A stretch of 55,604 nt of DNA from Acinetobacter phage vB_AbaM_3098, in the sequence record PV081573.1; one strand, written 5' to 3'. The notes beneath the pieces are model-generated. The model saw only the letters and a program-made list of their open reading frames with translations, did no database searches and had not been told where the DNA came from. Numbering within the stretch: the first letter of the stretch is position 1; each line of letters opens with the position of its first letter. A program made the translations under genes and the position numbers. Positions 15,290 through 30,553 of this stretch are shown piece by piece.

Positions 15290-15294
15290 TTAAT

Positions 15295-16911: not shown

Positions 16912-16989
16912 GTTTACTTTTAGATGTGATCTAACACACTTTTACACTCCGGTATTTCAGTGCTGATTAGATTACATCTAAAAGTAAAC
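16912..16989 (+). repeat. long hairpin (about 23-bp stem, 32-nt loop) in the RNA-rich region
   Basis: gtttacttttagatgtgatctaa (16912-16934) is complementary to ttagattacatctaaaagtaaac (16967-16989) with one G-U. Confidence 0.6.
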
Positions 16990-17280
16990 ATTTAAGGATG
17001 ATATAGTCTTAATATGCTGGTTTGATTTGCCAGTTCAGACTTACTAAATTTCTAAATTGCCAAAGACTTCTGGAAGTGATTTAAACCGAGCAGGTGAAGA
17101 GAGTAAAGCCTCCTGACTGCATATCCAGAATAGGTTATTAGAAAGGTGTACGTGACGCTAGAATCAGGGATTTAAGTTTCAAGTTAGACATGCCACATGT
17201 ATGCAGAGTATCAGTCTGGTAAGCTGGTGCACTTCAAAGTTGTGATAATTTAGAAGTGCCGACTCTTTAATGATACCAGA

Positions 17281-17304
17281 AGCTGTTTAAAGTATGAGAT
17301 CACC
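17281..17304 (+). promoter_or_regulatory. conserved motif AGCTGTTTAAAGTATGAGATCACC; putative promoter for tRNA-Arg
   Basis: Contains both AGCTGTTTAAA and GTATGAG; about 105 nt upstream of the tRNA at 17409. Confidence 0.4.
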
Positions 17305-17408
17305 GAGAAGTGATAACTGACATTACCTTTAATTTTATGATTAAAGTCTTTTTGATTAATGTTTAGATACAGTTATCACTATCTTGTTGATTTCTTAGTT
17401 CACATTGC

Positions 17409-17482
17409 AGGGCTATAGCTCAGATGGATAGAGCATTCCACTTCTAATGGAATGGTCGTGAGTTCGAATCTCACTAGCCCTG
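17409..17482 (+). tRNA. tRNA-Arg (anticodon UCU)
   Basis: Perfect cloverleaf: acceptor agggcta/tagccct, D-stem gctc/gagc, anticodon stem ttcca/tggaa with loop cTTCTaa (anticodon TCT), T-arm gtgag-ttcgaat-ctcac, discriminator G. Confidence 0.85.
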
Positions 17483-17730
17483 CAATGTGAACTATTAATT
17501 AACATTAGACAGCCGATTTCGGATCGGTGACGTGGCTGAGAGAGTGAGCACAAACTGTTAGTACTTCTAGTAGAAGAACCACGTGACATCTCGGAAGATA
17601 GCGAGAAGTGGGTAGGTGTAGACTTCCCACTTAAAGCGAAATAGACTACATGTTGATTAGGCATGGCTTAATTAGGGTTGCAACCTTCTAACTGCTCAGG
17701 CAAGTGGTAAATAGCAACTGATATTTCCTT

Positions 17731-17773
17731 AGTTCATTTAGTAGATTAATCTTGATCCGCAGTCGAGATTAAT
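17731..17773 (+). repeat. 15-bp perfect hairpin immediately upstream of the HNH gene
   Basis: ttagtagattaatct-tgatccgcagtcg-agattaatctactaa. Confidence 0.55.
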
Positions 17774-17802
17774 CTACTAAATGTTCTACTGCGGAGGTTA
17801 TA

Positions 17803-18447
17803 TTGGAACACTTAGAACTGCCATTTGATAAAGATGGTATTTGGAAATTATATAATGATGATCTTGCTAATCTTAGCCATGAAAGATCAATGGGCAGAAA
17901 ATCTGCTGAATCAAAAGGTCATCCTTACTATGGTATATTGAGAGAACTTTACAACTATCCTCACTTTATATCCTTCTCTGGAATGCACAGTAGACTCAAG
18001 TATTCTAAATTGGCAACTGATTTCCCGAGAACATTAGAAGGTTTTATTGACTATATTGTCTACATGGGTCCAGTACCTTCTGGAATGGAGAGACCTGTAG
18101 CTGGCCGAATAGATCATTCTGTAGGTTATCTAAGAGGTAATTTTGCATGGCAAAGTGCGGAGGACAACAATAGAGAATCTGCACTAAGAAATCAAAAGAA
18201 TGGTAAGTGGTTAGGTTACCAGACATGCGCAGCAGCTGGAATGCAAGACTGGAATGACGGAGTAAGAAATTATAGACTTCAACCAGATGACCCAAAGATA
18301 AAAGAATTAAATTTAAACAAAGGTAGACTATATACTCCAGACGAAAGAGTACAATGTCCTCACTGTTTAAAAGAAGGCGGTATTAAGAGAATGAAACAAA
18401 TTCATTTTGATAAATGCTACTTAAAAGATTCCAGTAAAACGGAATAA
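17803..18447 (+). CDS. HNH-family homing endonuclease-like protein
   Basis: GRIDHSVGYLRGNFAWQSAEDNNRE resembles the HNH H-N-N core, plus a C-terminal CPHC..C motif; located in the tRNA/tmRNA region as in T4 seg/mob genes. Confidence 0.45.
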   Translation: MEHLELPFDKDGIWKLYNDDLANLSHERSMGRKSAESKGHPYYGILRELYNYPHFISFSGMHSRLKYSKLATDFPRTLEGFIDYIVYMGPVPSGMERPVAGRIDHSVGYLRGNFAWQSAEDNNRESALRNQKNGKWLGYQTCAAAGMQDWNDGVRNYRLQPDDPKIKELNLNKGRLYTPDERVQCPHCLKEGGIKRMKQIHFDKCYLKDSSKTE

Positions 18448-18459
18448 TCACTGTAAAGT

Positions 18460-18510
18460 TATAAGTTATTAAGGCTTTGTGGACATGGGTTCAATTCCCA
18501 TCTACTCCAC
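18460..18510 (+). ncRNA. ssrA: tmRNA acceptor piece (3' part of a permuted ssrA): T-arm plus acceptor 3' strand
   Basis: T-arm atggg-ttcaatt-cccat (18485-18501), then ctactcc + discriminator A + C (18502-18510). It pairs with the GGGGTAG at 18540 including a G3:U70 wobble, the alanine identity element. Confidence 0.5.
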
Positions 18511-18539
18511 ATTAATGAATTCTAAGAGTTTATTAATGT

Positions 18540-18720
18540 GGGGTAGTACTGGTTTCGACACAGAGTATATAGAGCTTGTAATCAGTGGGATTGAGACCCT
18601 AAGTTTCAAACTTAAATACAAAAGCTAATGATAGTACTTTTGGTACTCGTGCTCTAGCTGCTTAATTGCAGTTAGACTGAGTGGAGTTCGGAGGAGCTTT
18701 GCAACAGAAATCCTCCAACC
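18540..18720 (+). ncRNA. ssrA: tmRNA coding piece (5' acceptor strand, tag reading frame ANDSTFGTRALAA*)
   Basis: GGGGTAGTACTGGTTTCGACACAG matches the conserved tmRNA 5' end (E. coli GGGGCUGAUUCUGGAUUCGACGGG). Resume codon GCT at 18624 after caaaa. Tag ORF 18624-18665 encodes ANDSTFGTRALAA and ends ALAA-TAA. 3' boundary uncertain. Confidence 0.55.
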
Positions 18721-18959
18721 AATTAATTACGACAATTATCTTCGAAACTAGCTGTTGCCACTTCAAGGTGAAAGTCCTTAGTGAAACACAGCTTTATGGT
18801 TACTTAAAATAAGTATCTGAAGTTACGTAGATAGGATTCTGAAGTAAGTAGAGCGTAGAGGATAAAATTAGATTAGCTATCTATACGAATACTCTCCACA
18901 GTGGACTTAATCCATTGGACCGAGCTTATAGCATAAGAAGATAATTGTCGTAATTAATT
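18721..18959 (+). repeat. 23-bp perfect inverted repeat flanking a 193-bp segment downstream of the tmRNA tag region
   Basis: aattaattacgacaattatcttc (18721-18743) vs gaagataattgtcgtaattaatt (18937-18959). Confidence 0.65.
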
Positions 18960-19382
18960 AAGAGTGAATAATATGAAATTTATTTGCGTTAAATGCTCAC
19001 GTTCAATCTGGTTTGTTGATGAACTAGGTTGCTGTGGAAGATGTTCTGAAGATAAAACAGGATTCCCTACTGTATTTAAGTAGGGGCGTTTGCGACTGAG
19101 AGGAATTGGGTATTCTGCACTCTCTTTAATAAAAGTAATACCAGCAGTTTCAAGTCTGCTTTTAATATAGTCACTTCTTAGAGTGATCACGAATGAACTA
19201 GCGAATGTATTAGTCTTGCATGCCTTGTGTTGTACATTTGAATAGCTTTCAAGAGCCGATATTAATAATCAAAACTTGACCCAATTTCATATTGAAATAA
19301 TTTGTTAAACAATTAACAAGGATCGCAACCTTGATTGGGTGTACTGAAAGCACTATCAGATTATTTCAATATGAGATTAGTT

Positions 19383-19691
19383 ATGAAAAGTTCTGAAATT
19401 ATAAAGATCATTTCTGCAATACGAAATTCACATCCAGACTTAACTATAGTTTACACTGAAGGTCATTGTTTTGACTTTCATGTAATCCTTCGGACGATTC
19501 TGGGTAATGATAAAGTAGAGCTCTGGCATGATCATATTGAAGGGCATTTCTACACTAAAGTAGGAAATTACTGGTATGACATCAGGGGAATTCATTATAA
19601 AGTTTCCCAGAGTTGTGTAAAGTGTTCTTACTCTGAGTTCGCTCATAAGCCACATCGCTGGTCTAGGAACTCAGGAATAAAGATTAGGTAA
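19383..19691 (+). CDS. hypothetical protein (102 aa)
   Basis: ORF in the RNA-rich region; start uncertain (ATG 19335/19371/19383). Confidence 0.35.
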   Translation: MKSSEIIKIISAIRNSHPDLTIVYTEGHCFDFHVILRTILGNDKVELWHDHIEGHFYTKVGNYWYDIRGIHYKVSQSCVKCSYSEFAHKPHRWSRNSGIKIR

Positions 19692-19787
19692 CTTGGTAGA
19701 GTTGGTTGATTACACTGCTGAGTAAGCGAAAGCTGAAACGTGGCCATGTGAAGGCATGCAACGCAGGTTCGAACCCTGCAGTTATCT
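19687..19787 (+). ncRNA. tRNA-like element (possible degenerate or unusual tRNA)
   Basis: Perfect T-arm gcagg-ttcgaac-cctgc. A 7-bp acceptor-like pairing ggtaact/agttatc spans 101 nt. A D-arm-like gtag...ttac is present. No canonical anticodon arm could be folded. Confidence 0.25.
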
Positions 19788-20100
19788 AGTATTCACCTCA
19801 GCCTGAATCACACAGGTTCTGTTAGATCAGAGAATTAGAGGTCATGGAGATATTATGATTGCGCACTTGCTCTTGACTCCTTAGCAATTAAACAAGACAG
19901 TAAGAGACCAACGTCCTGTAAGTCTCAAAGTAGGATCGTACCTACAAGCGGTTAGCATTATTATGCTGTCTTATATAGGATTACTGCTGAAAACTCTGGA
20001 AGATTTTCTGTTCCCTTAGCTTAGAAGTAAAAGCACCCTGCTCATAACAGGAAGATCGAGATTGCAAAATTCTCAGGGGACACCACTTGTACCATCTCAA

Positions 20101-20141
20101 CCCAGCTAGGAATTCCCCTATTCACCTAGCTGGGTCTTTTT
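20101..20141 (+). terminator. strong rho-independent terminator in the RNA region
   Basis: 10-bp stem cccagctagg / cctagctggg followed by tcttttt. Confidence 0.7.
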
Positions 20142-20146
20142 ACTCT

Positions 20147-20321
20147 AGTTATTTAATAAGAGTATACTGTCGCTACACTGTCTGGTATTGGAAACTTATC
20201 GCGGAAGACAGTACGACTACCTCTAGGATTGAGTTTACTCTCCACCTTGCAAGACAAGTTAATGCGCTGTTTAACTTGAAGGTAAAATAGAGCAGTGGCA
20301 GTATACTCTTATTAAATAACT
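20147..20321 (+). repeat. 23-bp perfect inverted repeat flanking a 129-bp segment
   Basis: agttatttaataagagtatactg (20147-20169) vs cagtatactcttattaaataact (20299-20321); starts 6 nt after terminator 20101-20141. Confidence 0.65.
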
Positions 20322-20417
20322 ATTTTTATTGTCCTTTTTGGCTTTTTAATCGTCTCTGTAATGGCTCCAAAAGCTGTTTAAAGCGTTCAAGATAAGCCAC
20401 AATTAGTGAGTTTATTT

Positions 20418-20633
20418 ATGGGTTTTGGACTTGTATGTTTTACATTGACGGTTTGCTTAATAATTTATTTAGGCAAGATGATCGATTTTGAACCTGACAA
20501 TTTAATCTGGCTTAAGCTGGATGAAATTAGATATGTACAATATCTCTGTAGAATCTTGACAGTATTAATAATCCTGGATTTGTATTTCTTCATGTCTTGG
20601 ATTATAAAATTACTACTTAACTTATCTTCTTGA
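20418..20633 (+). CDS. small membrane protein (71 aa)
   Basis: Two hydrophobic segments; downstream of the third copy of the CTCTGTAATGGCTCCAAAAGCTGTTTAAAGCGTTCA element. Confidence 0.4.
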   Translation: MGFGLVCFTLTVCLIIYLGKMIDFEPDNLIWLKLDEIRYVQYLCRILTVLIILDLYFFMSWIIKLLLNLSS

Positions 20634-21019
20634 GTTAAGTCAGTATAGACAACTTAAGATGGCAGTAAACTGCTGAGCTTGCTTGCACATTAGCTCCCTC
20701 CGACTGTAAGAGAAGTGTCGGACACTCTCCATGAGTGAAACTGAAGCCCAATAGATGGCTGGATACGTTGACCACTTGCGTATTTCAGATGGGTAATTCA
20801 GGATGCGAGGTTACTTTAAGTGGGAAATAAGCCAATGGCGTGAAATGTGGCTGTAATAGCGACATGAGGGTAGGCTCGGGATTGGCGCAACCAATCCACC
20901 TAGCCAGTCAAGGGGGAAGAGTAATCTCACCTTTATCTATCTTTAGATAATAAACTAATCTTAGTTAATTAAGTGAAATTAACTAAGTGCAATTATCTTA
21001 ACTCAACTAAGTGAAGTTT

Positions 21020-21409
21020 ATGTACATTATAATCAATTACTTAAATAAAATAAAATGCAGTAACTTAAAACTAGAATCACATAAAGATGAGCTAATTTTA
21101 GTTAGACGTACTGGGCTTCAAAGCCCAGACTGTATTGTAGCTGTTATTGCACCCTTAAACAAGAAGGTCTTCAACATCTATTATGACTTCCAGAAACTAC
21201 CAACTGAGATAGACTGTAAGTTTGTATCTAATGTTAAATATGAACGTGTAAACGAATTCATTGAAGCTCTCTTCGGACATCTGGCGCATTCAGAGAAAGC
21301 TGTCTCATTAGAGTCGTGGCTTAAATGTGAGCGATTAAAGATTAAATCTATTCCAAGTCAACTTACAGAGTTGTATACTTCAGCTCTACATGAGGAAATG
21401 TTCCAGTAA
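21020..21409 (+). CDS. hypothetical protein (129 aa)
   Basis: ATG at 21020; upstream direct repeats AAGTGnAnTT x3. Confidence 0.5.
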   Translation: MYIIINYLNKIKCSNLKLESHKDELILVRRTGLQSPDCIVAVIAPLNKKVFNIYYDFQKLPTEIDCKFVSNVKYERVNEFIEALFGHLAHSEKAVSLESWLKCERLKIKSIPSQLTELYTSALHEEMFQ

Positions 21410-21672
21410 TGAGTACAAATAAGTTAGTCTTCTCTGGCTTAAATAGAGATCAAACAACAAGAGTTGAAATCTATATTAAAGTAATTAACGGAAGTCCTAT
21501 TAGCTATCTTGGAGTAGGAATTAATAATCAAACCCAGAATCAAGTAGCGAGTAAGGAAGAAATTATTCTAGAGGACTTACTTAAATGGGCAACTCGTTCT
21601 GGTATTAGATTTACATTTGATCAGGTAAATTCTATTAAATTAGAATATAACAAATTATTAGCTGTTTCTTAA
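21409..21672 (+). CDS. hypothetical protein (87 aa)
   Basis: ORF; the C-terminal ..LAVS* is encoded by the AGCTGTTTCTTAA motif. Confidence 0.5.
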   Translation: MSTNKLVFSGLNRDQTTRVEIYIKVINGSPISYLGVGINNQTQNQVASKEEIILEDLLKWATRSGIRFTFDQVNSIKLEYNKLLAVS

Positions 21673-21682
21673 ACACTCTCAG

Positions 21683-21703
21683 AACCTGTTAAGGTATGAG
21701 ACG
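21683..21703 (+). promoter_or_regulatory. conserved motif GAACCTGTTAAGGTATGAGACG; putative promoter of the leader-family array
   Basis: Exact AACCTGTTAAGGTATGAG core; 23 nt upstream of ATG 21726. Confidence 0.5.
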
Positions 21704-21725
21704 AAGACACAGTTGGAGATTTAAA

Positions 21726-22010
21726 ATGACTACACGTATAGAACAAATTCTAATCAAGCAACAAGGCTTAAAGTCTGTAAATGAATCAGCATTCAAAGAG
21801 CCTGATGAAAAAGAAGTTAAGGCTCACTATCTAAAATTATCCAGTATATCTGCAGATAATTACAAGGATAAACGAATTAACTTAGGTCCAGAACCAGACA
21901 CAATTTCTAAGTTTTCTAGAAATGGTTCTCACACTACTAAAATCAAGAACTGGATTAAAGAAGTTCATCAAACTCCAGAATACAAGAAAATTTTAGATAG
22001 AGCCAAATAA
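21726..22010 (+). CDS. leader-family protein 1 (N-terminal MTTRIEQILIKQQGLKSVNE|S)
   Basis: ATG at 21726 after promoter-like motif 21683-21703. Shares the conserved N-terminal leader with 9 downstream paralogs. The track start at 21696 is the ATG inside the GGTATGAG motif. Confidence 0.6.
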   Translation: MTTRIEQILIKQQGLKSVNESAFKEPDEKEVKAHYLKLSSISADNYKDKRINLGPEPDTISKFSRNGSHTTKIKNWIKEVHQTPEYKKILDRAK

Positions 22011-22059
22011 AGCTGCTCCTTCAACAATTAACAAATTTCAACGGAAATGTACATATAAA

Positions 22060-22521
22060 ATGACTACACGTATTGGTAAAATTTTAGAGATAAATGAATC
22101 TTTGTCAGAAGTTAATGAATCTGATTCCAGTTTAACAATAAACGGTAAGAATTATGCCGTTTCATTTATAAAAGGTGGAGATAGATATGAAGGTGTTAAC
22201 TATAGCTTAGTCCTTAAATCTAAGGAAGATATTTTAGTTTACCCTAGAATCTTCACTTACTCTGGCGGACAAAGTCAAGGTAGCTCTCGTAGTGAATCAG
22301 AGAACTTTTTAGAAGTTCTAGGTTATGGAGATACTGGCAATGGCTCTGGAGTAAAAGGTACTCCTAAGCCTTACTTAAGTAGATATATTGTTGATTTCCT
22401 AGAATCAGTTATCTCAGGTAAATCATATAATAAGGAAGCAGTAGCTAAATATGAAAGAATTAAGCACACTTTTTCACCTAAAGCAAAAGCTTCTGAAATT
22501 AAATCTGCAATCAGTTATTAA
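22060..22521 (+). CDS. leader-family protein 2 (MTTRIGKILEINESLSEVNE|S)
   Basis: Conserved N-terminal leader; conserved 5' UTR ttcaacgg..ataaaATG. Confidence 0.6.
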   Translation: MTTRIGKILEINESLSEVNESDSSLTINGKNYAVSFIKGGDRYEGVNYSLVLKSKEDILVYPRIFTYSGGQSQGSSRSESENFLEVLGYGDTGNGSGVKGTPKPYLSRYIVDFLESVISGKSYNKEAVAKYERIKHTFSPKAKASEIKSAISY

Positions 22522-22559
22522 CTGTTCTTTTTGAACAGTTTTCAACGGAGAAACATAAA

Positions 22560-22907
22560 ATGAGTACACGTGCAACAAATATTCTTTCAAAAATAACTGG
22601 TTCAGTTAACGAAAGCTCTCAGAAAGGGAAATCAATTAAGAGTGAACTAGAATTAGCAGAGTACGCTAGTGAGTTTATTAAGAAAAACAATATTAAAAGA
22701 GTTCCTGATCCTTTGTCTAACTACAAAGATAACTTTTTAACTCCACAGTGGAAGCGATCTGGTGCTGTATTAGGTTATAAATTACCAAAATCAGCAGGTG
22801 GTTTATTCTTAGGTTATTTCAACAGTGGTACTAAATCTGGAGTTGTGTTTGATACTCCTATTAGTGAGACTGAATTTCTTGCTCTAACAAGAAAACTTAA
22901 CGGATAG
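22560..22907 (+). CDS. leader-family protein 3 (MSTRATNILSKITGSVNE|S)
   Basis: Conserved N-terminal leader; conserved 5' UTR. Confidence 0.6.
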   Translation: MSTRATNILSKITGSVNESSQKGKSIKSELELAEYASEFIKKNNIKRVPDPLSNYKDNFLTPQWKRSGAVLGYKLPKSAGGLFLGYFNSGTKSGVVFDTPISETEFLALTRKLNG

Positions 22908-22956
22908 AGCTGTTCCTTCAACGATTTCAAAACAAATTTCAGTAGAGAAATATAAA

Positions 22957-23244
22957 ATGACTACACGTATTGGAAATATCTTAGAGAAGCGTGCTGGTTC
23001 AGTAAATGAATCAAAGATTGACCACCAGAAACTGGCTAATGATGCAGATTCAAACTATAAGCATTACGCTAATAAAGGTGATGAAAAGCATAGATTAATG
23101 GAAAGATTCAGATACCATTATCATTCTTCAAAAATAGAAGGAAAATCTGATTCAGATAAGGCTAACCACATTAAGAAAGCTAAAGCGGTTTACATTGATC
23201 TAGGAAAACCAGCATCTTTATCTAAAATGCACAATGATCTTTAA
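22957..23244 (+). CDS. leader-family protein 4 (MTTRIGNILEKRAGSVNE|S)
   Basis: Conserved N-terminal leader; conserved 5' UTR. Confidence 0.6.
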   Translation: MTTRIGNILEKRAGSVNESKIDHQKLANDADSNYKHYANKGDEKHRLMERFRYHYHSSKIEGKSDSDKANHIKKAKAVYIDLGKPASLSKMHNDL

Positions 23245-23270
23245 AGCTAGCTGTTCCTTCAGCGATTTCA

Positions 23271-23292
23271 AAGCCTGTTAATTTGTGGCGGT
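23271..23292 (+). promoter_or_regulatory. conserved motif AAGCCTGTTAATTTGTGGCGG; putative promoter of the RNAP fragment gene
   Basis: TTTGTGG variant; upstream of ATG 23335. Confidence 0.4.
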
Positions 23293-23334
23293 GGCTTGTC
23301 ACATTATAATATTATTTGTAATAGGGATTACATT

Positions 23335-24858
23335 ATGTCAAAAGTTCACGTTTCTAAAGATATGAGCGAAATCTATCGTCTTAAAGAAATGAAGATTCTT
23401 AAGATCACTTCTCCAGTTCGATTCAAAATGGAAAGTGGCTGGGTAGATACAACTGTTGGTCGTTTAATTATCTGGGATATTTCTGGTTATCTTCCAGACG
23501 ATTTCTTAAATAAGAAAACTATCAAGCATTTGATCACTCATATAAATCGTAACTTTGAACCTAAGGAAGCTGTACTTCGTTTAAAACGAATACAGCAAAT
23601 CGGCTTTGAAACTTCAACCCAGACTGGATTATCATTATGTTATGATGACTTCAAGTTTGATTTTGGTATTGATTTCAAGGCTGTAGAAGGTGAACTTTCT
23701 AAGATGTCTGTTGAAGAGCGATTAGAGTACGGCGATAAAATCATCAATGAAGCTACAGCTCGCTGGTGGAATGAAGTCGATAAAGCTAATCCACTTCGTA
23801 AGATGGGTGTATCTGGAGCTCGTGTAACTGATGCTCAGGTTCGTCAGATGATTGTAGCTAAGGGTCTCTTAGGTTCGATGACTGGTGAAATTGCACCTTA
23901 CCCTATTATGGAATCACTCACAACTGGTCTTAGTACATTTAACTACTTCCAGACAGTAGGTCCAGCTCGACGTGGTCTTGCAGATAACTACTTCGTAGTT
24001 CCAGCTTCAGGTTACTTTGCTCGACAGCTTGTAACAGTAGCTCGTGACTTGAAGTGTGTTGAGCATGATTGCGGAACTGTAAATACAATCTACGTTCCAA
24101 TTGAGTTTGGTCGAGGTCGACATGAACTTGGTAATGATGATGTCTTAACTAAGATGGATTTACAAGTTAGATCTGGTGAGATGATTAAAATGCGATCTCC
24201 AATTACTTGTGAATCAAGCAAGGGTGGAGTTTGCCAAGTGTGTGCAGGCTTAGATCCAGCTACTGAAGATTATTGGCGTATTGGAATGGGACTTGGAACT
24301 TGCTCAGCACAGCATATCTCAGAACCAACTACACAGTTAGGTCTTCGAGGTAAGCATACATCTGGATCGGTTACTCTAGCTTCAGCTAAGACTAAGGTAA
24401 GTAACACATTAGCAGATCTATTGAAATTGTTAGGTGGACGTGGTACTCACTTGATTGGACCTCAGTTAAGTGAGATAGATGGCTTTAATGATTATTATTC
24501 AAAAGAGAAAGACTGGTTGAAAGCTACAACTAATCTTCTTCTTAAAATGGAAAGTCTGGTAAGCGGAGCTGGTACGAGTATCGCATCTGTTCACTACGAG
24601 ATGATCTTACGTGGTTGTACTGATATCGTCAAGCAAGGTGACGGGACAATGGGTCTGCGTTCACTAGGAGCTCACGGTAAGGTTCAACCAACAACAGTTC
24701 ATGCATATGGCCGTAAAGTGCCTAGTTGGTTAAAACGATTAGGTTATGGTTATACGAATGAAGTTATCAAGACTGCAGCTACTACTCTGGAACCATCTTT
24801 AGGTGGATATCAAGAGCAGATTATTATGGCTCAGTTTGAACATCTTGAGGAAGCCTAG
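23335..24858 (+). CDS. multisubunit RNA polymerase beta-prime C-terminal fragment-like protein
   Basis: ITCESSKGGVCQVCAGLDP...GMGLGTCSAQHISEPTTQLGLRGKHTSGS matches the beta-prime trigger-loop/bridge region (E. coli ..[44 protein letters not shown]). ATG at 23335 downstream of motif 23271-23292. Confidence 0.55.
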   Translation: MSKVHVSKDMSEIYRLKEMKILKITSPVRFKMESGWVDTTVGRLIIWDISGYLPDDFLNKKTIKHLITHINRNFEPKEAVLRLKRIQQIGFETSTQTGLSLCYDDFKFDFGIDFKAVEGELSKMSVEERLEYGDKIINEATARWWNEVDKANPLRKMGVSGARVTDAQVRQMIVAKGLLGSMTGEIAPYPIMESLTTGLSTFNYFQTVGPARRGLADNYFVVPASGYFARQLVTVARDLKCVEHDCGTVNTIYVPIEFGRGRHELGNDDVLTKMDLQVRSGEMIKMRSPITCESSKGGVCQVCAGLDPATEDYWRIGMGLGTCSAQHISEPTTQLGLRGKHTSGSVTLASAKTKVSNTLADLLKLLGGRGTHLIGPQLSEIDGFNDYYSKEKDWLKATTNLLLKMESLVSGAGTSIASVHYEMILRGCTDIVKQGDGTMGLRSLGAHGKVQPTTVHAYGRKVPSWLKRLGYGYTNEVIKTAATTLEPSLGGYQEQIIMAQFEHLEEA

Positions 24859-24879
24859 TGCTTCCTTCTGGAGAATTAA

Positions 24880-25164
24880 ATGACACGAATTGCAAAGATT
24901 AACGCAATGGCTAAAGGCATTAGTGTTAATGAAGAACAAATTACAAGCCCAGATGATGCTGTAGTGCTTAAGAAATACGGTGCTACAGTTCCTAAAGGTA
25001 AGTTAGTTGGACGTTGCCCTGTAACTGGAATGGCTATTGTTCAACCACAGACACCTTTCCCACCTGATATGGGTAAATACAAATGGGAAGAAGATTCCAA
25101 ACTGTATAGAATCCCAGATGACTTAATTGACTCTATCGGAGGAAAATACAATGACGCAGACTAG
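24880..25164 (+). CDS. leader-family protein 5 (MTRIAKINAMAKGISVNE|E)
   Basis: Conserved N-terminal leader. Confidence 0.55.
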   Translation: MTRIAKINAMAKGISVNEEQITSPDDAVVLKKYGATVPKGKLVGRCPVTGMAIVQPQTPFPPDMGKYKWEEDSKLYRIPDDLIDSIGGKYNDAD

Positions 25165-25435
25165 AATTGGTAAAATCCTTGCATCTAAAGCTTCAACTCA
25201 AAACATTGATGAATCTCTTACTAAAAGTGTAGTAGATGAAGGTCAAGGAATGGGTTGTAAAGTTACTTCAGTTGCAGGTAAGACTGTAGTTAAATTAGAC
25301 GAGAACTGCTCTGATTCACAACGTAAAATGATTTCTGAAAAGTTGTCTAAAGGTGGATTTGTATTCTCTGAAGGTAGAAAGCAGTTTGCAATCGAAGATG
25401 CATCTGAAGCTGAAGTTGCAGAGTGCTTGAAGTAA
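25151..25435 (+). CDS. leader-family protein 6 (MTQTRIGKILASKASTQNIDE|S)
   Basis: ATG at 25151 with RBS ggagg; conserved leader; overlaps the upstream gene by 14 nt. Confidence 0.5.
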   Translation: MTQTRIGKILASKASTQNIDESLTKSVVDEGQGMGCKVTSVAGKTVVKLDENCSDSQRKMISEKLSKGGFVFSEGRKQFAIEDASEAEVAECLK

Positions 25436-25480
25436 AAGCTGTTTCTTAAGCATTGTTAAAACCTGTTAAGGTATGAGACG
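25436..25480 (+). promoter_or_regulatory. bipartite motif AAAAGCTGTTTCTTAAGC...AAAACCTGTTAAGGTATGAGACG; putative promoter
   Basis: Both motif halves present with about 24-bp spacing; palindrome agacgtct follows; 34 nt upstream of ATG 25514. Confidence 0.5.
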
Positions 25481-25513
25481 TCTTTGACGATTTACACCTT
25501 AGAGGATTACAAA

Positions 25514-25972
25514 ATGAACAATGCTTTGACAGTTGCACTTAACAGCCTTCCTAATTTGGCAACAGCATCACCTTGGGATGAGGTTACAATCGAGAAGGCT
25601 AAAAACTTCAAGGATGCTTCTACAATTCTGGATTTAGGTTCTCATCTAGATAACCTCACAGCTACTGGTAAGAATCCCGAAGACAAGATAGCTAAGATGG
25701 TTGATGTAGAATTCAATTGGGTTTCCATCCCGATGTCTTCTTATTACAACGATCTCTGGTTCGATCTTAAGAAATCTGAAATCCCTCCGTTGAAATCGGA
25801 AATTGCATCTGGCTCAAATATGTTAATCACACCAGAAGATTTGGTGAACATCTTGAATGTACAGAAAGATAAGGGATACAAGTTTCTTGTGAATGCCGAA
25901 GCTTCTCCAGTTGTGGTTAAGCATACTAAGACTCTAATTCTACAGGTTCGTAACTATACTGTGAATATGTAA
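25514..25972 (+). CDS. hypothetical protein (152 aa) inside the leader-family array
   Basis: ATG at 25514 with RBS agagga, downstream of promoter-like motif 25457-25480; the track start at 25484 is a TTG inside the motif region. Confidence 0.5.
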   Translation: MNNALTVALNSLPNLATASPWDEVTIEKAKNFKDASTILDLGSHLDNLTATGKNPEDKIAKMVDVEFNWVSIPMSSYYNDLWFDLKKSEIPPLKSEIASGSNMLITPEDLVNILNVQKDKGYKFLVNAEASPVVVKHTKTLILQVRNYTVNM

Positions 25973-25983
25973 GGAAAATAAAA

Positions 25984-26244
25984 ATGTCAAGAATCAAAGA
26001 TATCAAAGAAAAACAATCTGGCTTAGTTTCAGTAGATGAGTCAGCTAAGTCTAAGTGGTGGAAAACAGAAGGGAATTCGGATTCAATCGCTGTTTATAAG
26101 TTTAAGAAAGGTAATCAATACAGATATTTAGTTGGCTGGTTTACTCCCAAATCTGGTGAATCAATGGAAGATTTTCTGAAAAGAATTTCACCAACTAAGT
26201 ATGATTTAAAAGATCTTGAAGTAGACCCAAAATACTTAGCCTGA
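25984..26244 (+). CDS. leader-family protein 7 (MSRIKDIKEKQSGLVSVDE|S)
   Basis: Conserved N-terminal leader; RBS aaggaaaataaaaATG. Confidence 0.55.
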   Translation: MSRIKDIKEKQSGLVSVDESAKSKWWKTEGNSDSIAVYKFKKGNQYRYLVGWFTPKSGESMEDFLKRISPTKYDLKDLEVDPKYLA

Positions 26245-26256
26245 GGAAAAATTAAA

Positions 26257-26502
26257 ATGTCAAGAATTAAAAATTTATCTGAGAAGCAATCTGGCTTATT
26301 CATTGTTAATGAATCTAAGGCTGACAAAGCCGCAGCTAGATTAGAAGATATCTGGGATGCTATTCCTTCTGATAAGTCAAAAGCTAAAGCGTATCTGGAT
26401 AAACACAAGAAAGAAGTTCTTGCTTTAATCAATAGCTTTGAGCCAGATGAGTACAGAGCAGGTAATGCAGAATGGCGTGACGCTGAGAACTGGGGATATT
26501 AA
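26257..26502 (+). CDS. leader-family protein 8 (MSRIKNLSEKQSGLFIVNE|S)
   Basis: Conserved N-terminal leader; RBS gaggaaaaattaaaATG. Confidence 0.55.
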   Translation: MSRIKNLSEKQSGLFIVNESKADKAAARLEDIWDAIPSDKSKAKAYLDKHKKEVLALINSFEPDEYRAGNAEWRDAENWGY

Positions 26503-26798
26503 TGACAAGAATAGCAACACTTCTTGCTAAGACTAAGTCTGTAAATGAAGCTTTCTCACTTAGGAATTTACGTCAAGTTGTTTCTGGGGACACTCATAAT
26601 CTTTGGAAGAATGAATACTGTGATCTTATTGTAAGTGATAAAGATGGAAGTAAGATCGTAGATCAAATGTCAACAGTTGTGTCTGATATGGACTTGGCTA
26701 ATAAGTTTGCTGAGGAAATTGCAAGAGATTATTTCCCAGAGCAGGCTTCTGCAGTTGAGAAAGAAATCAAATCAATGTTAGTCTTGAACGAAGGCTAA
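26502..26798 (+). CDS. leader-family protein 9 (MTRIATLLAKTKSVNE|A)
   Basis: Conserved N-terminal leader. Confidence 0.55.
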   Translation: MTRIATLLAKTKSVNEAFSLRNLRQVVSGDTHNLWKNEYCDLIVSDKDGSKIVDQMSTVVSDMDLANKFAEEIARDYFPEQASAVEKEIKSMLVLNEG

Positions 26799-26854
26799 TT
26801 TTAAATTTAATTAACTGGGATGGATTGTAACGCCCAGCGCTCGAGATAAATAAA

Positions 26855-28078
26855 ATGAAGACTATTGTAAATGGCAGTGTAGTCTCTGTCAATGAAGCTT
26901 TTACAGATCGTATGACACAGTACATTGATGACAGAGCGATTGAATATCTTAAACAAAATTTACGTGAATCAAAAGAAACTGGCAAGAAATCTAAATACGA
27001 ATACTACTCTGATTTAGCAGACCGTGCTACTGATCCAGTAATGCGTGTATTCTATGAGTTCGCTATGCTTCTTCCAGAAGAGCAAGCTATGAACTTAGCA
27101 CGTGAATATTATCAACGTGAAATTCGCTCAGGTACAATCTCATATGACCAATACGAGTCAGAGAATGATGAAGGCGAAACTATGTCTGGAATTATGAATA
27201 CTAAGTTCTCAGTAAGTGCTGGCTTAGTAGATAAAGGTGTATTCTCAGCAATCGCTGCAGGTGAACGCCGTACTCCAGAACGTAATATGGAATTGAGTGA
27301 CTTATTTGAAAAATTATTCTTCACTTATCTTGAAGATGTAGGTCGTTTAGTTCTATGTGCAAGACTTGTGACAGGTTCAAGTACAGGGCGAGTTCGTAAA
27401 TCTGAAGCTGGTAAATTAGATTTATCAGAGATTATGCACCGCACTCCACCTGAATATGCAGAAGTATTACGTCAATACCAGAAAATGCTTGATGCAGGTA
27501 TTCCTGAAGATCAAATTAATGCGAAGAATTTACTTACTGGATGGAAGCCAACTGAAACTCACCCAGTGACAATCAAAGGTATTGCATCTCATACTGACTA
27601 CCGTGATGGACAAGCTGATCTAGAAGAAGGCATCCATATGATGGTAGGTGACGGATATCAAACTGTAGGTCAAATTAAAAAATTCTTCCACGTTAATGAA
27701 GAATTGATTACTTATGATGACGGTACTGATCTTGATGATGTAGACGAAGCTGCAGGTGATGATCGAAAGATTCTAAAAACAATCGAATTTATTTTGTCTG
27801 GTCATCCAGTTCGATACACTGATTTAAACAAAGCTCTGAAATTTGTTATTGCAGATAATATTAAGAGCAAATCTCCTATGCTTAAATCAAAATTATTTAG
27901 AAACAGAAAGCCGAAGTACATTCTTCAAGCTATGCTTAAGATGCTTAAGTCTGGTCGAGAAGAGCAAATCAAGCAAGTGCAGTTTGCAATTTTAGCTCCA
28001 GCTTTAACTCGTAATGCCAAAGCTAAGAAAATGCTAAATAACATTCTTAACTCTAAAGGCAAACAATTACTAAGATAA
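26855..28078 (+). CDS. leader-family protein 10, large (407 aa; MKTIVNGSVVSVNE|A)
   Basis: Leader with the SVNEA motif followed by a 390-aa body; lies immediately upstream of the tail-fibre genes. Confidence 0.55.
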   Translation: MKTIVNGSVVSVNEAFTDRMTQYIDDRAIEYLKQNLRESKETGKKSKYEYYSDLADRATDPVMRVFYEFAMLLPEEQAMNLAREYYQREIRSGTISYDQYESENDEGETMSGIMNTKFSVSAGLVDKGVFSAIAAGERRTPERNMELSDLFEKLFFTYLEDVGRLVLCARLVTGSSTGRVRKSEAGKLDLSEIMHRTPPEYAEVLRQYQKMLDAGIPEDQINAKNLLTGWKPTETHPVTIKGIASHTDYRDGQADLEEGIHMMVGDGYQTVGQIKKFFHVNEELITYDDGTDLDDVDEAAGDDRKILKTIEFILSGHPVRYTDLNKALKFVIADNIKSKSPMLKSKLFRNRKPKYILQAMLKMLKSGREEQIKQVQFAILAPALTRNAKAKKMLNNILNSKGKQLLR

Positions 28079-28112
28079 TATGAGGGCACCTAAGCCCTCC
28101 TCGGAGTTTAAA

Positions 28113-30350
28113 ATGATTGAACAAAAATCAAAAACATTTGAAGAAATTGCTGGAATTATAACTGAGCATCATCACGACCAGCAAACTGAAGATATTTCAA
28201 ATATTTTATTAGCTTTAAATACTGGTAAATTAATTCAAGCCTTTGACTCTACATTAGCTTCTAAGATAGGTGGATACCCTGTTAACTCAACAGTAGTCCG
28301 CAATGATGGTGTTGAAGTAATATCTACAATTGCTAATAACATTACTGATCCCAATATTAGTATGAATGGTTGGGAATTAAAATTAATACACACTAGCTTA
28401 ATAAATTATAACTGGGAACCTAAATTAAAAGGTTATCCATTAAATGCCCGTGTGATGCTTGACACTGGTGATATTGTTAAATCTACTGTGCCTAATAATA
28501 CAACAAATCCAAATTTAGATATGGCTGGATGGTTATTGGCAAACTCAGCTAGTGCTATTTTAGATAAGAGCGGTATAAGTCAACAAGAGGTTAATGACCT
28601 AACAGCGCACTTAGATGCATATTTAAAAGAAATGAATGTTCTTCCAAGTGAAGATATATCTCCGGTATTGAACCAAATAAAAGCAGACGGCATCAAAAAG
28701 TTACATGTTAAAAGTCGTGAATATATTGTTAATTCGTTGATTGAGTTCACTGAAGATTTCGAGTTCGTCAACGAGACTGGCACGGTATTTAATTTTGGAG
28801 ACACGGGTGGCTTCTATGCTTCTGGTTCTCACACACAGATAACAACTTTAGCTAGCGACATTGTAAAAAATCAGAGCCAATCTTTTGATGTTGCAGATGC
28901 GTCTCAAATTCAAAAAGGGGACTGGTTGGTTATCTACTGTACAGATGACTTTAGTTACTCACCGTATCGATACTACTACAGAAAAGGCGAATTTGTAGAA
29001 GTTGCTTCAGTAAGCGGGAACACTGTTAAGTTTTTCGGTAGAGCTTATGACAATTATCTAACCTCTGAAAATATCGTTATTCTAAAAGTTAATCCGATCA
29101 ATTTTAAGTTTAACTATCTGAAAACAGTTTCTACTGATAACAATCCTAATGTTCCATTAGTAATTGATTACGCCCGTAACTTTGAAACAGGGTATTTTGA
29201 GAATAAGGGTGGTAAATTTGCTGGACTTAGATTGCGCAGATGTTTTAATTTCAATATTGCTATTAACTCAGCTAAAAATAATGCACCAGCAAATACCTTA
29301 AACTATGGTATTCAGATTTCTAACTGCCAAAATTATAATTATTATGGTGGTAGCAACAATTCAACTCGTCATGCGGTCGCAATAGGCGGTGACGAAGATT
29401 TAGGTTGCGTGCCTTGTCGTAAGGGTTACATCTCTGGAGCAACCCTCCATAGTGAAACAGACACTTCTGGTTCAGATATGCACGGAAATGTTGAGCGCAC
29501 TGTATATGATCACTGTACAACAAATTACGCAACATTTGGCGCAGGTGATAACGAGTATGCCAACTGCGATATTTATGAGCGTGAGGGTCAAGGGTGTGTA
29601 CTTATTGCGGAGCCTAGAGGTGGTTTCTTCAAACTGACAAACAATAACTATTATACAAAAACACCATTAAATTCATGGTCGCTAGTTCATGGTATTATTG
29701 AAAAACAATTGCGTGAAGATTTGACAGTAAAACTGGATGGAGGGCGTATTAACGGTGTTGGTGGTGCATCAGCTGGTATTGTAACAATAAGACAATCTAA
29801 CGCTTTGAATGAAACTCTCACAAATAAAATAAATGTTCATATTACTGGAGGTGTATCTTGTGATTTTGATGCGCTTAGACACTGGGCGTGGGTTGAAGAT
29901 GGAACTATCGGTAGATACACTGTTCCAATCGGCTACATAATCGTTGATGATGTAGTTAATACGAAAGACACCGCAAATCCGTATTTAATCTATCCGAGTC
30001 AATCAACACTGGCTACTAATGTTAAAACTAGACAAATGTCGCAGCAAGGGGCTGTCTCAGTGACTTCTGCTGTCAATAACACAGCTACCCGCGCAAATGT
30101 TGTAAACTTAAAGTACAAGTATTCTAAAGCTCCTAATGTGATTGTTAGTGTTGGCAACTTGGTTGGTTCTGCATCATGGGATGCAACATTCTTTAATGAA
30201 GATATTAATGTTGAGCCTCTTCGAACACCGACCCCCGTCAACTCTTTAGTTGCAATAGATCAGGTTAGGCCAGCGGTGCTTTGGAATAAAAAAGTTGTGA
30301 CGCCAAAAACCTTTAATTTGTATTGGGAATCTGGAATACGTGAGATATAG
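28113..30350 (+). CDS. tail fibre / tailspike protein 1 (beta-helix type receptor-binding protein)
   Basis: ATG at 28113 with RBS ggag. N-terminal HHHDQQTEDI anchor motif shared with the two paralogs below. Repeated N.TNPN.D..GW motifs. Large C-terminal Gly/Asn-rich region. Confidence 0.6.
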   Translation: MIEQKSKTFEEIAGIITEHHHDQQTEDISNILLALNTGKLIQAFDSTLASKIGGYPVNSTVVRNDGVEVISTIANNITDPNISMNGWELKLIHTSLINYNWEPKLKGYPLNARVMLDTGDIVKSTVPNNTTNPNLDMAGWLLANSASAILDKSGISQQEVNDLTAHLDAYLKEMNVLPSEDISPVLNQIKADGIKKLHVKSREYIVNSLIEFTEDFEFVNETGTVFNFGDTGGFYASGSHTQITTLASDIVKNQSQSFDVADASQIQKGDWLVIYCTDDFSYSPYRYYYRKGEFVEVASVSGNTVKFFGRAYDNYLTSENIVILKVNPINFKFNYLKTVSTDNNPNVPLVIDYARNFETGYFENKGGKFAGLRLRRCFNFNIAINSAKNNAPANTLNYGIQISNCQNYNYYGGSNNSTRHAVAIGGDEDLGCVPCRKGYISGATLHSETDTSGSDMHGNVERTVYDHCTTNYATFGAGDNEYANCDIYEREGQGCVLIAEPRGGFFKLTNNNYYTKTPLNSWSLVHGIIEKQLREDLTVKLDGGRINGVGGASAGIVTIRQSNALNETLTNKINVHITGGVSCDFDALRHWAWVEDGTIGRYTVPIGYIIVDDVVNTKDTANPYLIYPSQSTLATNVKTRQMSQQGAVSVTSAVNNTATRANVVNLKYKYSKAPNVIVSVGNLVGSASWDATFFNEDINVEPLRTPTPVNSLVAIDQVRPAVLWNKKVVTPKTFNLYWESGIREI

Positions 30351-30553
30351 GAGCCACTTGTTAAAGCTTTTATTGTTTATAAGAAGTGCTATTGTAAGTA
30401 AAACTTATATAGGTTTAATCTATAGTGGATTTTTCTTAACATGATTCTGGAGCGGTTAAATTAGAGAATATTAATCTTTAAGTATTTGTAAATTAAAGTT
30501 TCCTAATTTAATACCTTAATTACATTAAATATCAAATTACAGAAGGTAATTAA

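Follow-up and report, generated by a model that had tools for sequence, protein, structure and literature searches.

The gene at positions 23335-24858 of a 55,604-nucleotide stretch of DNA from Acinetobacter phage vB_AbaM_3098 (PV081573.1; the whole stretch is referred to as the window) encodes a product that, judged from its sequence, is the C-terminal half of a compact bacterial-type RNA polymerase (RNAP) β′ subunit. This half is called β′C and the N-terminal half β′N. The compact phage β′ that they make up probably assembles on the β and α subunits of the host, a reading that we felt was about evenly poised. The gene and the features associated with it are as follows.

23249..23288, + strand: bipartite promoter-like motif AGCTGTTCCTTCA-N12-CCTGTTAATTTGTGG, ending 46 nt 5' of the β′C ATG
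23323..23327, + strand: Shine-Dalgarno-like AGGGA, 7 nt 5' of ATG 23335, which favours this ATG over TTG 23296
23335..24858, + strand: β′C coding sequence, 507 aa, from ATG 23335 to TAG 24858, covering profile positions 492-1087 of the full-length β′ model
23959..24054, + strand: bridge-helix region GPARRGLADNYFVVPASGYFARQLVTVARDLK, residues 209-240, aligned to E. coli/Salmonella β′ ~778-810
24061..24249, + strand: second β′ Zn-binding site (Cys246, Cys292, Cys300, Cys303), aligned to bacterial DCGT and C...C..C
24307..24369, + strand: trigger loop AQHISEPTTQLGLRGKHTSGS, residues 325-345, aligned to β′ and free of any lineage-specific insertion
26855..28078, + strand: 407-aa protein, whose family adjoins the DNA polymerase A/β′ block in Escherichia phage vB_EcoM_IME392 (IME392) and metagenomic relatives

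The 507-aa product was compared with profiles and with proteins of known structure. Among rpoC-type profiles, Pfam RNA_pol_Rpb1_5 (PF04998) gave a significant match, 53.6 bits against a cut-off of 28.5 (E 2.9e-14). Rpb1_3 (PF04983) and Rpb1_4 (PF05000) scored slightly under their cut-offs (27.9 vs 28.9 bits and 21.5 vs 24.8 bits, respectively), each in a region collinear with β′. The top matches generated by phmmer against PDB sequences were bacterial β′ chains (7xya_D, E 1.5e-33), with β′C residues 36-355 paired with bacterial β′ ~569-950. PDB sequences matching at E ≤ 1 numbered 86, and the best 60 of the 86 were all RNAP largest-subunit (β′/β″) chains. Salmonella and Acinetobacter RpoC aligned with β′C over its full length. 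In the alignment β′C spans E. coli β′ ~520 to ~1357; the SI3 insertion is missing, as is most of the jaw. A sequence-only reading of the window had proposed a stand-alone β′ C-terminal half, which is borne out by the Rpb1_5 domain, the PDB β′ matches and the RpoC alignment.

The open reading frame has an alternative start, TTG 23296, that would add 13 aa. This start was ruled out: it lies 8 nt past the promoter-like motif, it is not preceded by a ribosome-binding site, and orthologues use the ATG. Both the orthologue from Acinetobacter phage Ab1-TPeters and the database protein P0001, an identical 507-aa sequence in a public protein collection, begin at the ATG equivalent to 23335. β′C and the Ab1-TPeters orthologue differ by synonymous changes only at 167 codons and by non-synonymous changes at 110. 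Divergence by codon position was 0.48 at the third, 0.20 at the first and 0.13 at the second position. On this codon comparison the β′C gene is under purifying selection.

Two strings had been quoted in the sequence-only reading as a β′ signature. Both were found, CESSKGGVCQVCAG in the second Zn site and AQHISEPTTQLGLRGKHTSGS as the trigger loop. CESSKGGVCQVCAG occupies residues 292-305 and holds 3/4 cysteines of the Zn site (Cys292, Cys300 and Cys303), and the fourth, Cys246, lies in EHDCGT at residues 243-248. All four cysteines were invariant in an alignment of 19 family members. The trigger loop retains its catalytic Arg and His, and Q334, G339, K340 and H341 were invariant in the 19 family members. 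The bridge helix proper, GPARRGLADNYFVVPASGYFARQLV, comprises residues 209-233, and many of its columns were invariant in the same alignment. β′C also has the funnel/secondary-channel region and conserved C-terminal region H. A conserved [LIM]-x-E near the N-terminus might have been a protease site, but was dismissed as such, the same Glu occurring in bacterial β′. Neither a DxDGD motif nor a second β′-like ORF was found anywhere in the 55.6-kb window.

The β′N of this phage would lie outside the window, judging from relatives whose β′C is 78% and 50% identical. The complementary half with NADFDGD, which the sequence-only reading had suggested looking for, is a separate gene in the complete genomes of close relatives. 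In relatives, β′N carries a Zn finger, clamp helices, NRAPSLHR and NADFDGD. The last motif is NMDVDGD in IME392, and it is NADFDGD in Ab1-TPeters once a group I intron is removed. The Ab1-TPeters β′N gene is located just after DNA polymerase A, within the replication block, and β′N and β′C are adjacent in metagenomic contigs L010 and L011. A β′ profile run on the complete Ab1-TPeters and IME392 genomes identified one β′N and one β′C in each, and no second set.

The cut between β′N and β′C corresponds to E. coli β′ ~517, which is ~50 residues past the catalytic NADFDGD loop, and the site is common to 5/5 split genomes (β′ residues 515-518). The N-terminus of β′C, MSKVHVSKDMSEIYRL, pairs with bacterial β′ 520-535 and continues β′ from the end of β′N. 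The arrangement had been equated with the split subunits of phiKZ and AR9. This did not hold up, as the cut is at ~517 here, at ~636 in YerA41 and at ~580 in cyanobacteria, and some relatives are unsplit. The cyanobacterial position was obtained from RpoC2 alignment offsets; that the jumbo-phage β′ split site coincides with the cyanobacterial site is taken from a published report (PMC7598289).

The nearest relatives, Ab1-TPeters and IME392, are ~110-116-kb myophages. Full-length β′C orthologues are present in Ab1-TPeters (XTJ53608.1, 'hypothetical protein'; 78% identity), IME392 (AXY86070.1, 'putative DNA-directed RNA polymerase beta' subunit'; 50% identity) and Ralstonia phage RP13 (ORF150; 39% identity). 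All three are stand-alone proteins of ~500 aa that lack SI3 and most of the jaw. The 'hypothetical protein' annotation in Ab1-TPeters can be corrected, as can the 'beta subunit' annotation of the IME392 β′N. The window protein has the properties of an IME392-type stand-alone β′C, namely ~500 aa, a start at ~520, no SI3 and a reduced jaw; among 1.84 billion representatives, ~10 clusters (50% identity) are of this type. Relatives with a β′C homologue are phages of 109.8, 111.4, 116.5 and 170.9 kb plus a 110.2-kb metagenomic contig. A phiKZ/AR9-like lineage had been proposed. The relatives are 110-171 kb and bacterial β′ outscores AR9 β′, which speaks against that placement; AR9 β′ matches β′C weakly (30% identity over 43% of the query, E 8e-16).

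Unsplit β′ proteins of about 995-1190 aa also occur among close relatives. Vibrio phage Va2 QPB08552.1 (one 1192-aa polypeptide), Rhizobium phage RHph_Y65 gp335 (Kleczkowskaviridae; 1127 aa) and the metagenomic proteins P0038 and P0040 (~1014-1030 aa) belong to the same compact β′ family, at 32-39% identity, but are unsplit. The Va2 and Y65 proteins retain a jaw-like insertion, whereas the IME392-type clade has lost it. When compared with RpoC, β′ of phages without β showed 25-32% identity (237-517 bits), and β′ of YerA41 and Carin-5, which have their own β, 22-24% (203-214 bits). IME392 β′ favoured enterobacterial RpoC and Ab1/window β′ favoured Acinetobacter RpoC, a weak tendency involving two phages and few bits. 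In the literature consulted we found no description of β′-only phages or of an IME392-type polymerase, nor a functional study of any member.

By the sequence searches used, no recognisable β is encoded in the complete Ab1-TPeters and IME392 genomes, and the same is expected of the genome that contains the window on the basis of these relatives. The motifs GEME, RHGxKG and PSRM, searched as regular expressions, revealed no β in the window or in either complete genome. No β was identified in Ab1-TPeters, IME392 or the window using phmmer with the E. coli RpoB C-terminus (an approximate query), jackhmmer with YerA41 β, or an HMM built from 4 β sequences, whose best non-β match had an E of 0.17. 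The protein behind this match, a 486-aa IME392 protein, was rejected as β; it has an ETPDG-like string only, which is unconserved in the rest of its family. Eight conserved unknown families compared with a β profile using hhalign all gave ≤0.3% probability. YerA41 β and Acinetobacter RpoB were also run by tblastn against 50,697 phage records. This search recovered very divergent phiKZ/AR9-type β, produced no β in Rhizobium RHph records, and had no β among the matches listed for IME392-type phages, Ab1, RP13 and Va2. Pfam and PHROG searches with the ten largest unknown window ORFs generated tailspike, spanin-like and other matches, and zero RNAP domains. A Pfam scan that took in 129 ORFs from the window together with the remainder of Ab1-TPeters covered the best 25 families and is uninformative on a weak β. 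The idea that the phage encodes its own multisubunit RNAP of the phiKZ/AR9 kind was not upheld, the relatives having one β′ set and no β homologue.

The window has 7 copies of the bipartite motif, including the one ahead of β′C; six were identified by pattern and the seventh is a variant. The AGCTG element of the six pattern copies starts at about 5903, 13721, 21660, 23249, 25437 and 38905, and the variant (AGGTGTTGCTTAA...CCTGTTAA) lies near 53916-53948. CCTGTTAA was counted 9 times against 1.8 expected, and 9 was reached by no shuffle. Intergenic regions of Ab1-TPeters have the same bipartite motif. The copy ahead of β′C is of the same class as that preceding the topoisomerase genes. Sigma-70-like promoters showed no excess in 14000-30500 (49 vs 53.9 expected) or in 35650-55604 (64 vs 73.2 expected). 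We infer that the bipartite motif is a phage-specific promoter. The phage-specific promoter-like motifs that had been described across the window are real, with one directly 5' of β′C.

Three other explanations of β′C were weighed. The phage RNAP could be self-contained, with a cryptic β, diverged beyond sequence recognition, that supplies the second catalytic barrel and the lobes. We consider this rather doubtful. The β-like part of YonO or crAss-phage gp66 has diverged beyond sequence recognition. On this explanation four families found near β′, of 407 aa, ~155 aa, ~200 aa and ~220 aa, would be the missing subunits or specificity factors, and the families could indeed be novel polymerase subunits. 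All four are syntenic with β′ in IME392, RP13 and metagenomic contigs, the ~200-aa family is also found upstream of the unsplit β′ in Va2 and RHph_Y65 (Vibrio and Rhizobium phages), and the related phages YerA41 and Carin-5 do encode a β adjoining β′. However, the companion families have ≤0.3% probability against the β profile, match nothing in Pfam, and match no PDB chain in profile searches. The 407-aa protein, which has an N-terminal [VI]xE[AS] motif, has no Pfam, PHROG or PDB match and no similarity to the β profile. Its AlphaFold2 model is mostly helical (pLDDT 46), and with the model of the ~200-aa family (pLDDT 53) the two modelled families are predicted, at low confidence, to be all- or mostly helical and not β-barrel-rich. 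In the ~19-22 kb covered around β′ in Va2 and in Y65, the ~200-aa family was the only companion found. The ~200-aa family had no jackhmmer link to the Carin-5 'sigma factor'/YerA41_136; with hhalign the two were collinear, but at 3% probability (E 0.014). Simple searches do recover extremely divergent β of the phiKZ/AR9 type, which also argues against a cryptic β. Furthermore, β′ here is closer to bacteria than β′ in β-encoding phages, an asymmetry that is unexpected with an unrecognisable partner.

The remaining two explanations concern where β′C acts and whether it is catalytic. Neighbours of β′C in the window are small genes whose products share the leader M(S/T)TRIxxILE...VNE(S/A). This leader is similar to the capsid-targeting sequence of T4, which has 10 residues and an [LIV]-x-E cleavage site, in agreement with the earlier description of the neighbours as putatively capsid-targeted. 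In the window and in Ab1-TPeters, β′C lies within this T4-like leader-gene array, with same-strand tailspike genes downstream, and the phage head protease weakly matches the T4 gp21 family (Peptidase_S77, E 0.031). A virion-packaged RNAP had been suggested from this position; β′C would enter the capsid with the leader-bearing proteins and be injected for early transcription, as in phiKZ. The lack of a sigma-70-like promoter excess would also fit, and particle preparations of YerA41 contain RNAP subunits, but many replication enzymes too (PMC7354516). We regard packaging as very improbable. β′C itself is leaderless, and its N-terminus leads on directly from β′N. In IME392, RP13 and contigs L010-L012, β′C is in a block with DNA polymerase A, RNase H and β′N, and no leader array is present. 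Its relocation into the array distinguishes the window and Ab1-TPeters from the IME392/RP13 block, so the argument from position depends on a rearrangement peculiar to the Ab1-like lineage, β′C being beside DNA polymerase A elsewhere. The Ab1-TPeters β′N, moreover, is among the replication genes, and there is a single β′ set, whereas phiKZ and AR9 have separate virion and non-virion sets (PMC7598289). About as improbable, in our view, is a non-catalytic decoy or sponge, in which the β′ halves titrate host β, sigma or elongation factors and host transcription is shut off. No phage β was found, and a β′ that binds host β would anyway withdraw β from the host core. Against a decoy, a family with only 35-50% overall identity keeps the catalytic Asp triad (in β′N) without exception, along with the bridge helix, the Arg and His of the trigger loop, and the two Zn sites. 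The group I intron of the Ab1-TPeters β′N and an intein in a metagenomic β′ homologue, directly 3' of GKH in the trigger loop, sit exactly in catalytic motifs, and self-splicing restores exactly these motifs. Intron or intein homing into a motif is typical of essential active sites.

The preferred explanation is a hybrid of phage and host subunits. β′N and β′C together would form a catalytically competent β′, which most likely pairs with host β, α2 and ω, because no phage β is recognised and this β′ resembles bacterial β′ more closely than does the β′ of β-encoding phages. Acting at the bipartite, phage-specific promoters, the hybrid core would transcribe genes of the phage, probably those of the middle or late class. 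Its template is probably sugar-modified DNA, and small phage factors may assist it, for example the ~200-aa family upstream of β′. β′C would be made after infection from its own promoter-like motif and would not be packaged in the virion. Given the leader-gene and tailspike surroundings, β′C may be expressed late or even packaged. More tentatively, we propose that a group of 110-210-kb phages, with β′ split in IME392, Ab1-TPeters and RP13 and unsplit in Va2 and the Kleczkowskaviridae, may encode β′ alone and swap the host β′ on α2β. If true, the clamp, sigma docking, bridge helix and trigger loop of the resulting hybrid polymerase would have properties set by the phage, and such a subunit swap would be distinct from sigma replacement, covalent RNAP modification and a complete viral polymerase. 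Pairing of phage β′ with host β would be a new route to host transcription reprogramming and would offer a natural system for β′ function, with a minimal β′ lacking SI3 or jaw. Late transcription by a hybrid enzyme would remain rifampicin-sensitive. Should the partner turn out to be a cryptic β, the second catalytic subunit would here have taken on a new form that is unrecognisable.

Multisubunit RNAPs encoded by phages are so far characteristic of phiKZ- and AR9-like jumbo phages, which with their complete and highly divergent β/β′ sets do not depend on host RNAP. The β′C group consists of different, little-studied mid-sized phages with a compact, rather bacterial-like β′ that is sometimes split at its own site, and apparently with no β. 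The phiKZ and AR9/PBS1 polymerases resemble those of the window clade in that β′ is made as N and C polypeptides with the cut past the catalytic double-psi β-barrel, and these phages also have no annotated α or ω homologue. They have genomes >200 kb with two complete sets in which β and β′ are both split and highly divergent (PMC7598289, PMC7824862). The window clade, in contrast, has one set, no β, another cut site and a much higher similarity to bacterial β′.

YerA41 and Carin-5 are 145-155-kb phages with T-hypermodified DNA and, like the phages described here, a related DNA polymerase A (PMC12686479). In both, β′ adjoins a ~200-aa protein, which is labelled a sigma factor in Carin-5. The YerA41 β′ is also split, but at ~636 instead of ~517. 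Unlike the window clade, these two phages have a recognisable β (924-927 aa) directly after β′, and their β′ is less bacterial-like. Cyanobacterial and plastid RpoC2 resembles β′C in being derived from a β′ that is naturally split past the catalytic barrel, and RpoC2 chains, from their residue ~12-18, pair with β′C residues 58-255. The cellular RpoC1/RpoC2 split is, however, ~60 residues further downstream (E. coli ~580 vs ~517), and RpoC2 has a very large SI3 insertion where β′C has none.

The window has one long ORF at 23296-24858 (+); read from its internal ATG at 23335, the product, β′C, is 507 aa long. AGGGA lies 7 nt upstream of this ATG. The equivalent start is used by the orthologue in Acinetobacter phage Ab1-TPeters and by P0001, a 507-aa database entry of identical sequence, and the gene was taken as 23335-24858. 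The sequence-only reading had identified the product as a stand-alone C-terminal fragment of RNA polymerase β′, and this identification was confirmed. The Pfam profile RNA_pol_Rpb1_5 scored 53.6 bits against a cut-off of 28.5, with Rpb1_3 and Rpb1_4 slightly below their cut-offs. PHROGs matches were to 'RNA polymerase beta subunit' families and to a 1216-position unknown family. When all PDB sequences were searched with phmmer, the best matches were bacterial β′ chains (E 1.5e-33), and residues 36-355 aligned with β′ ~569-950 in three collinear stretches. The comparison with the Ab1-TPeters orthologue yielded 167 synonymous and 110 non-synonymous codon differences, and divergence at third positions was 2.4 to 3.6 times that at the first two. 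The gene is real and under purifying selection. The signature strings quoted in the sequence-only reading are present and belong to the first two of the following elements.

Cys246, 292, 300 and 303: second Zn site
Trigger loop: catalytic Arg and His kept
Residues 209-240: bridge helix

The first residues of β′C align with bacterial β′ 520-535. In the full-length alignment there is no SI3 insertion, most of the jaw is missing, and region H is retained, reaching the equivalent of E. coli ~1357. The product is the C-terminal half of a split, compact, bacterial-type β′; taken alone, its identity is near certain.

Relatives were identified by tblastn of β′C against 50,697 phage records.

Acinetobacter phage Ab1-TPeters, 109,750 bp: 78.5% identity across 99% of β′C; 'hypothetical protein' in its record
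E. coli phages IME392 (116,460 bp) and EP_H11 (111,373 bp): 50% identity
Ralstonia phage RP13, 170,942 bp: 39% identity
Vibrio, Rhizobium, Cobetia and Yersinia phages, 128-207 kb: 26-33% identity
AR9 and PBS1: only 30% identity across 43% of β′C (E 8e-16)

Ab1-TPeters is syntenic with the window over about 1.9 to 45.6 kb. Because of this synteny and the sizes of the relatives, the window belongs to a ~110-kb myophage lineage and not to a jumbo phage; the lineage is not phiKZ/AR9-like. YerA41 and Carin-5, both with hypermodified thymidine, have a family A DNA polymerase in common with these phages (PMC12686479). The window has two glycosyltransferase genes, at 11468-13722 (+), and cytidylyltransferase-like, cupin and PIG-L deacetylase matches occur elsewhere in the window/Ab1-TPeters gene set. 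Such glycosyltransferase and sugar-nucleotide enzyme genes would be consistent with a sugar-modified DNA or virion, and modified DNA in the window's phage is plausible. Two RNA genes were also found.

17409-17483 (+): tRNA-Arg(TCT), about 1 kb upstream of the tmRNA
18408-18756 (+): phage-encoded tmRNA (Rfam permuted tmRNA RF04321, 108 bits; beta_tmRNA RF01850, 88.9 bits), called tmRNA* by ARAGORN with tag peptide ANDSTFGTRALAA

Neither a DxDGD motif nor a second β′-like ORF was found anywhere in the window. The sequence-only reading had noted that the product lacks the NADFDGD half. This complementary half, β′N, is a separate gene in the IME392 and Ab1-TPeters genomes. IME392 β′N (522 aa) contains an N-terminal Zn finger, GKxGxxRGNLLGKRVDYSGRS, NRAPSLHR and NMDVDGD. 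Its gene (23388-24956 in IME392 locus L002) is named 'putative DNA-directed RNA polymerase beta subunit' in the record, but it is β′N and not β. Ab1-TPeters β′N directly follows DNA polymerase A, about 17 kb past the point where synteny with the window stops. A 360-nt group I intron (Rfam RF00028, 66 bits; 20146-20505 in Ab1-TPeters locus L003, ~64145-64504 of the phage's record) interrupts it exactly between the NAD and FDGD codons. The exons are annotated as separate hypothetical proteins; the spliced product reads PFNADFDGDQMAIH. The two genes adjoin in the order β′N, β′C in metagenomic contigs L010 and L011, and β′C precedes β′N in IME392 and contig L012. Other relatives have an unsplit β′.

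Vibrio phage Va2: 1192 aa
Rhizobium phage RHph_Y65: 1127 aa
Carin-5: 1083 aa
Several metagenomic relatives: 995-1150 aa

In the full-length alignment the N part stops at Salmonella/E. coli β′ 515-518 in 5/5 split genomes, and β′C picks up without loss where it ends, which points to one ancestral cut within the split clade. The YerA41 β′ is cut at ~636 by alignment, cyanobacterial RpoC2 starts near ~580 as judged from phmmer alignment offsets, and in jumbo phages the cut reportedly falls at the cyanobacterial site (PMC7598289). The proposed parallel with the jumbo-phage split subunits therefore stands in kind, β′ being divided between two genes, but not in origin, since the different cut sites indicate that the split arose separately. 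In Salmonella phage Arash, gp206 (4933-9510 of locus L016, 1525 aa) matches the β profile with a full-length score and has a further match, at residues 1021-1523, to positions 8-518 of the β′ profile; it appears to be β fused with β′N in one polypeptide.

Throughout the family, in which overall identity is otherwise only 35-50%, there is conservation of the β′N Asp triad, the bridge helix, the Arg and His of the trigger loop, and both Zn sites. In addition, a metagenomic β′C homologue (P0034, 1019 aa) carries a ~500-aa intein directly after the trigger-loop GKH; the insert starts with Cys and ends in HN, followed by TSG. Two mobile elements, this intein and the Ab1-TPeters intron in NAD|FDGD, have thus homed exactly into active-site motifs. 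Homing elements of this kind tend to be retained in active-site codons that are indispensable, and a pseudogene or purely decoy role is unlikely.

In the complete Ab1-TPeters and IME392 genomes the β′ profile matches only β′N and β′C. No β partner was found there by motif regex, by phmmer with the C-terminal part of E. coli RpoB, or by jackhmmer with YerA41 β. An HMM made from the β sequences of YerA41, Carin-5, Arash and Acinetobacter gave a best non-β match of E 0.17, in a non-conserved string, and hhalign of eight conserved unknown families against the same profile gave ≤0.3% probability for all. Across the phage collection, tblastn with YerA41 β and Acinetobacter RpoB detected the very divergent phiKZ-, AR9- and phiR1-37-type β; it had no match in any of the ten Rhizobium RHph genomes, and the matches listed included no record of the IME392 type, Ab1-TPeters, RP13 or Va2. 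The relatives thus have a separate β′N, a single set per genome and no recognisable β. The β′ of the β-less phages is 25-32% identical to bacterial RpoC (237-517 bits), compared with 22-24% (203-214 bits) for YerA41 and Carin-5, which have their own β. Enterobacterial RpoC favours IME392 and Acinetobacter RpoC favours the Ab1/window protein, although the reciprocal effect is weak.

We propose that β′N and β′C together form an active β′, which most likely would assemble on the α2β of the host; the resulting hybrid core would act at phage promoters. For the statement as a whole, from the identity of β′C and the relatives' β′N without β to the active hybrid core, the chances seem about even. A cryptic phage β, diverged beyond the searches described, would supply the partner instead and is the main competitor, possible but distinctly less probable. 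The polypeptide could also be a non-catalytic decoy, which the conserved catalytic motifs and the intron and intein in active-site codons make the least probable explanation.

Slightly less improbable, though still very unlikely, is a virion enzyme, which had been suggested by the position of β′C in an array of at least nine small leader-bearing genes. The array spans 21726-23244 and 24880-26798 (+); 26855-28078, the gene of a 407-aa protein, was grouped with it.

Leader-bearing ORF starts (+): 21726, 22060, 22560, 22957, 24880, 25151, 25984, 26257, 26502

The leader, M(S/T)TRIxxILE...VNE(S/A), is a 10-residue unit ending in I-L-E and followed by [VI]-N-E, and it closely resembles the capsid-targeting sequence of T4 internal proteins and its L/I-x-E cleavage site. 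The Peptidase_S77 match of the Ab1-TPeters head protease was sub-threshold (E 0.031). The leader is absent from β′C. In IME392, RP13 and contigs L010-L012 the β′C gene is placed among those for DNA polymerase A, RNase H and β′N, and there is no leader array. Because the relatives place β′C by replication genes, its position in the window is a rearrangement of the Ab1-like lineage. With no leader, a rearranged position and a single β′ set, a virion polymerase is unsupported. A tailspike gene is found a few kb downstream of β′C on the same strand. It is apart from the main structural module, which Ab1-TPeters encodes on the other strand.

28080-30350 (+): tailspike with TSP_Ig-like and Gp49 pectate-lyase-like domains (phrog_13768, E 1e-239)

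The phage-specific promoter-like motifs noticed earlier were recovered as a bipartite ~40-bp motif, AGCTGTTTCTTAA-N12-CCTGTTAA(G/T)(G/T)T(A/G)TG, with seven copies in the window, all intergenic and on the + strand.

AGCTG element starts (+): about 5903, 13721, 21660, 23249, 25437, 38905
Near 53916-53948 (+): variant copy

CCTGTTAA occurs 9 times in the window against 1.8 expected, a count reached by no shuffle. The copy at 23249-23288 stops 46 nt upstream of the β′C start codon, and further copies precede topoisomerase genes and leader-array members. A G+C-rich hairpin often follows, and the motif is also present in Ab1-TPeters. No enrichment of sigma-70-like sites was found. The motif probably represents a phage-specific promoter class.

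Three uncharacterised families travel with β′, and no Pfam or PDB match was found for them.

26855-28078 (+): 407-aa protein; homologues right behind DNA polymerase A in IME392, L010 and L012
~190-240-aa family: L003 18244-18825 (Ab1-TPeters CDS0111); L002 22716-23372; loci L008 14210-14770, L014 5404-6135 and 6578-7234, L009 6658-7299
Third family: ~220 aa

The 407-aa protein begins MKTIVNGSVVSVNEA, and all members of its family (IME392, metagenomic contigs) share an N-terminal [VI]xE[AS] in the same place. In IME392, L010-L012 and Ab1-TPeters the ~190-240-aa family lies immediately 5' of β′N; in RP13, Va2 and RHph_Y65 (two copies in the last) no more than about 1.2 kb separates it from the β′ genes. 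It is thereby present near β′ in the β-less phages examined. AlphaFold2 models of the 407-aa and ~200-aa proteins were of low confidence and largely helical. Carin-5 and YerA41 encode a ~200-aa protein in the same place upstream of β′, annotated 'RNA pol sigma factor' in Carin-5; hhalign between it and the ~200-aa family gave 3% probability. The ~190-240-aa family is a candidate specificity factor.

GenBank already labels the IME392 and RP13 orthologues β′, so the bare identification is not new. A literature search, incomplete in coverage, found no paper on a β′ system of mid-sized, apparently β-less phages. Compared with the phiKZ/AR9 paradigm, these phages are mid-sized, their β′ is more similar to bacterial β′ and is split at a distinct site with unsplit sister genes, and β is apparently missing.
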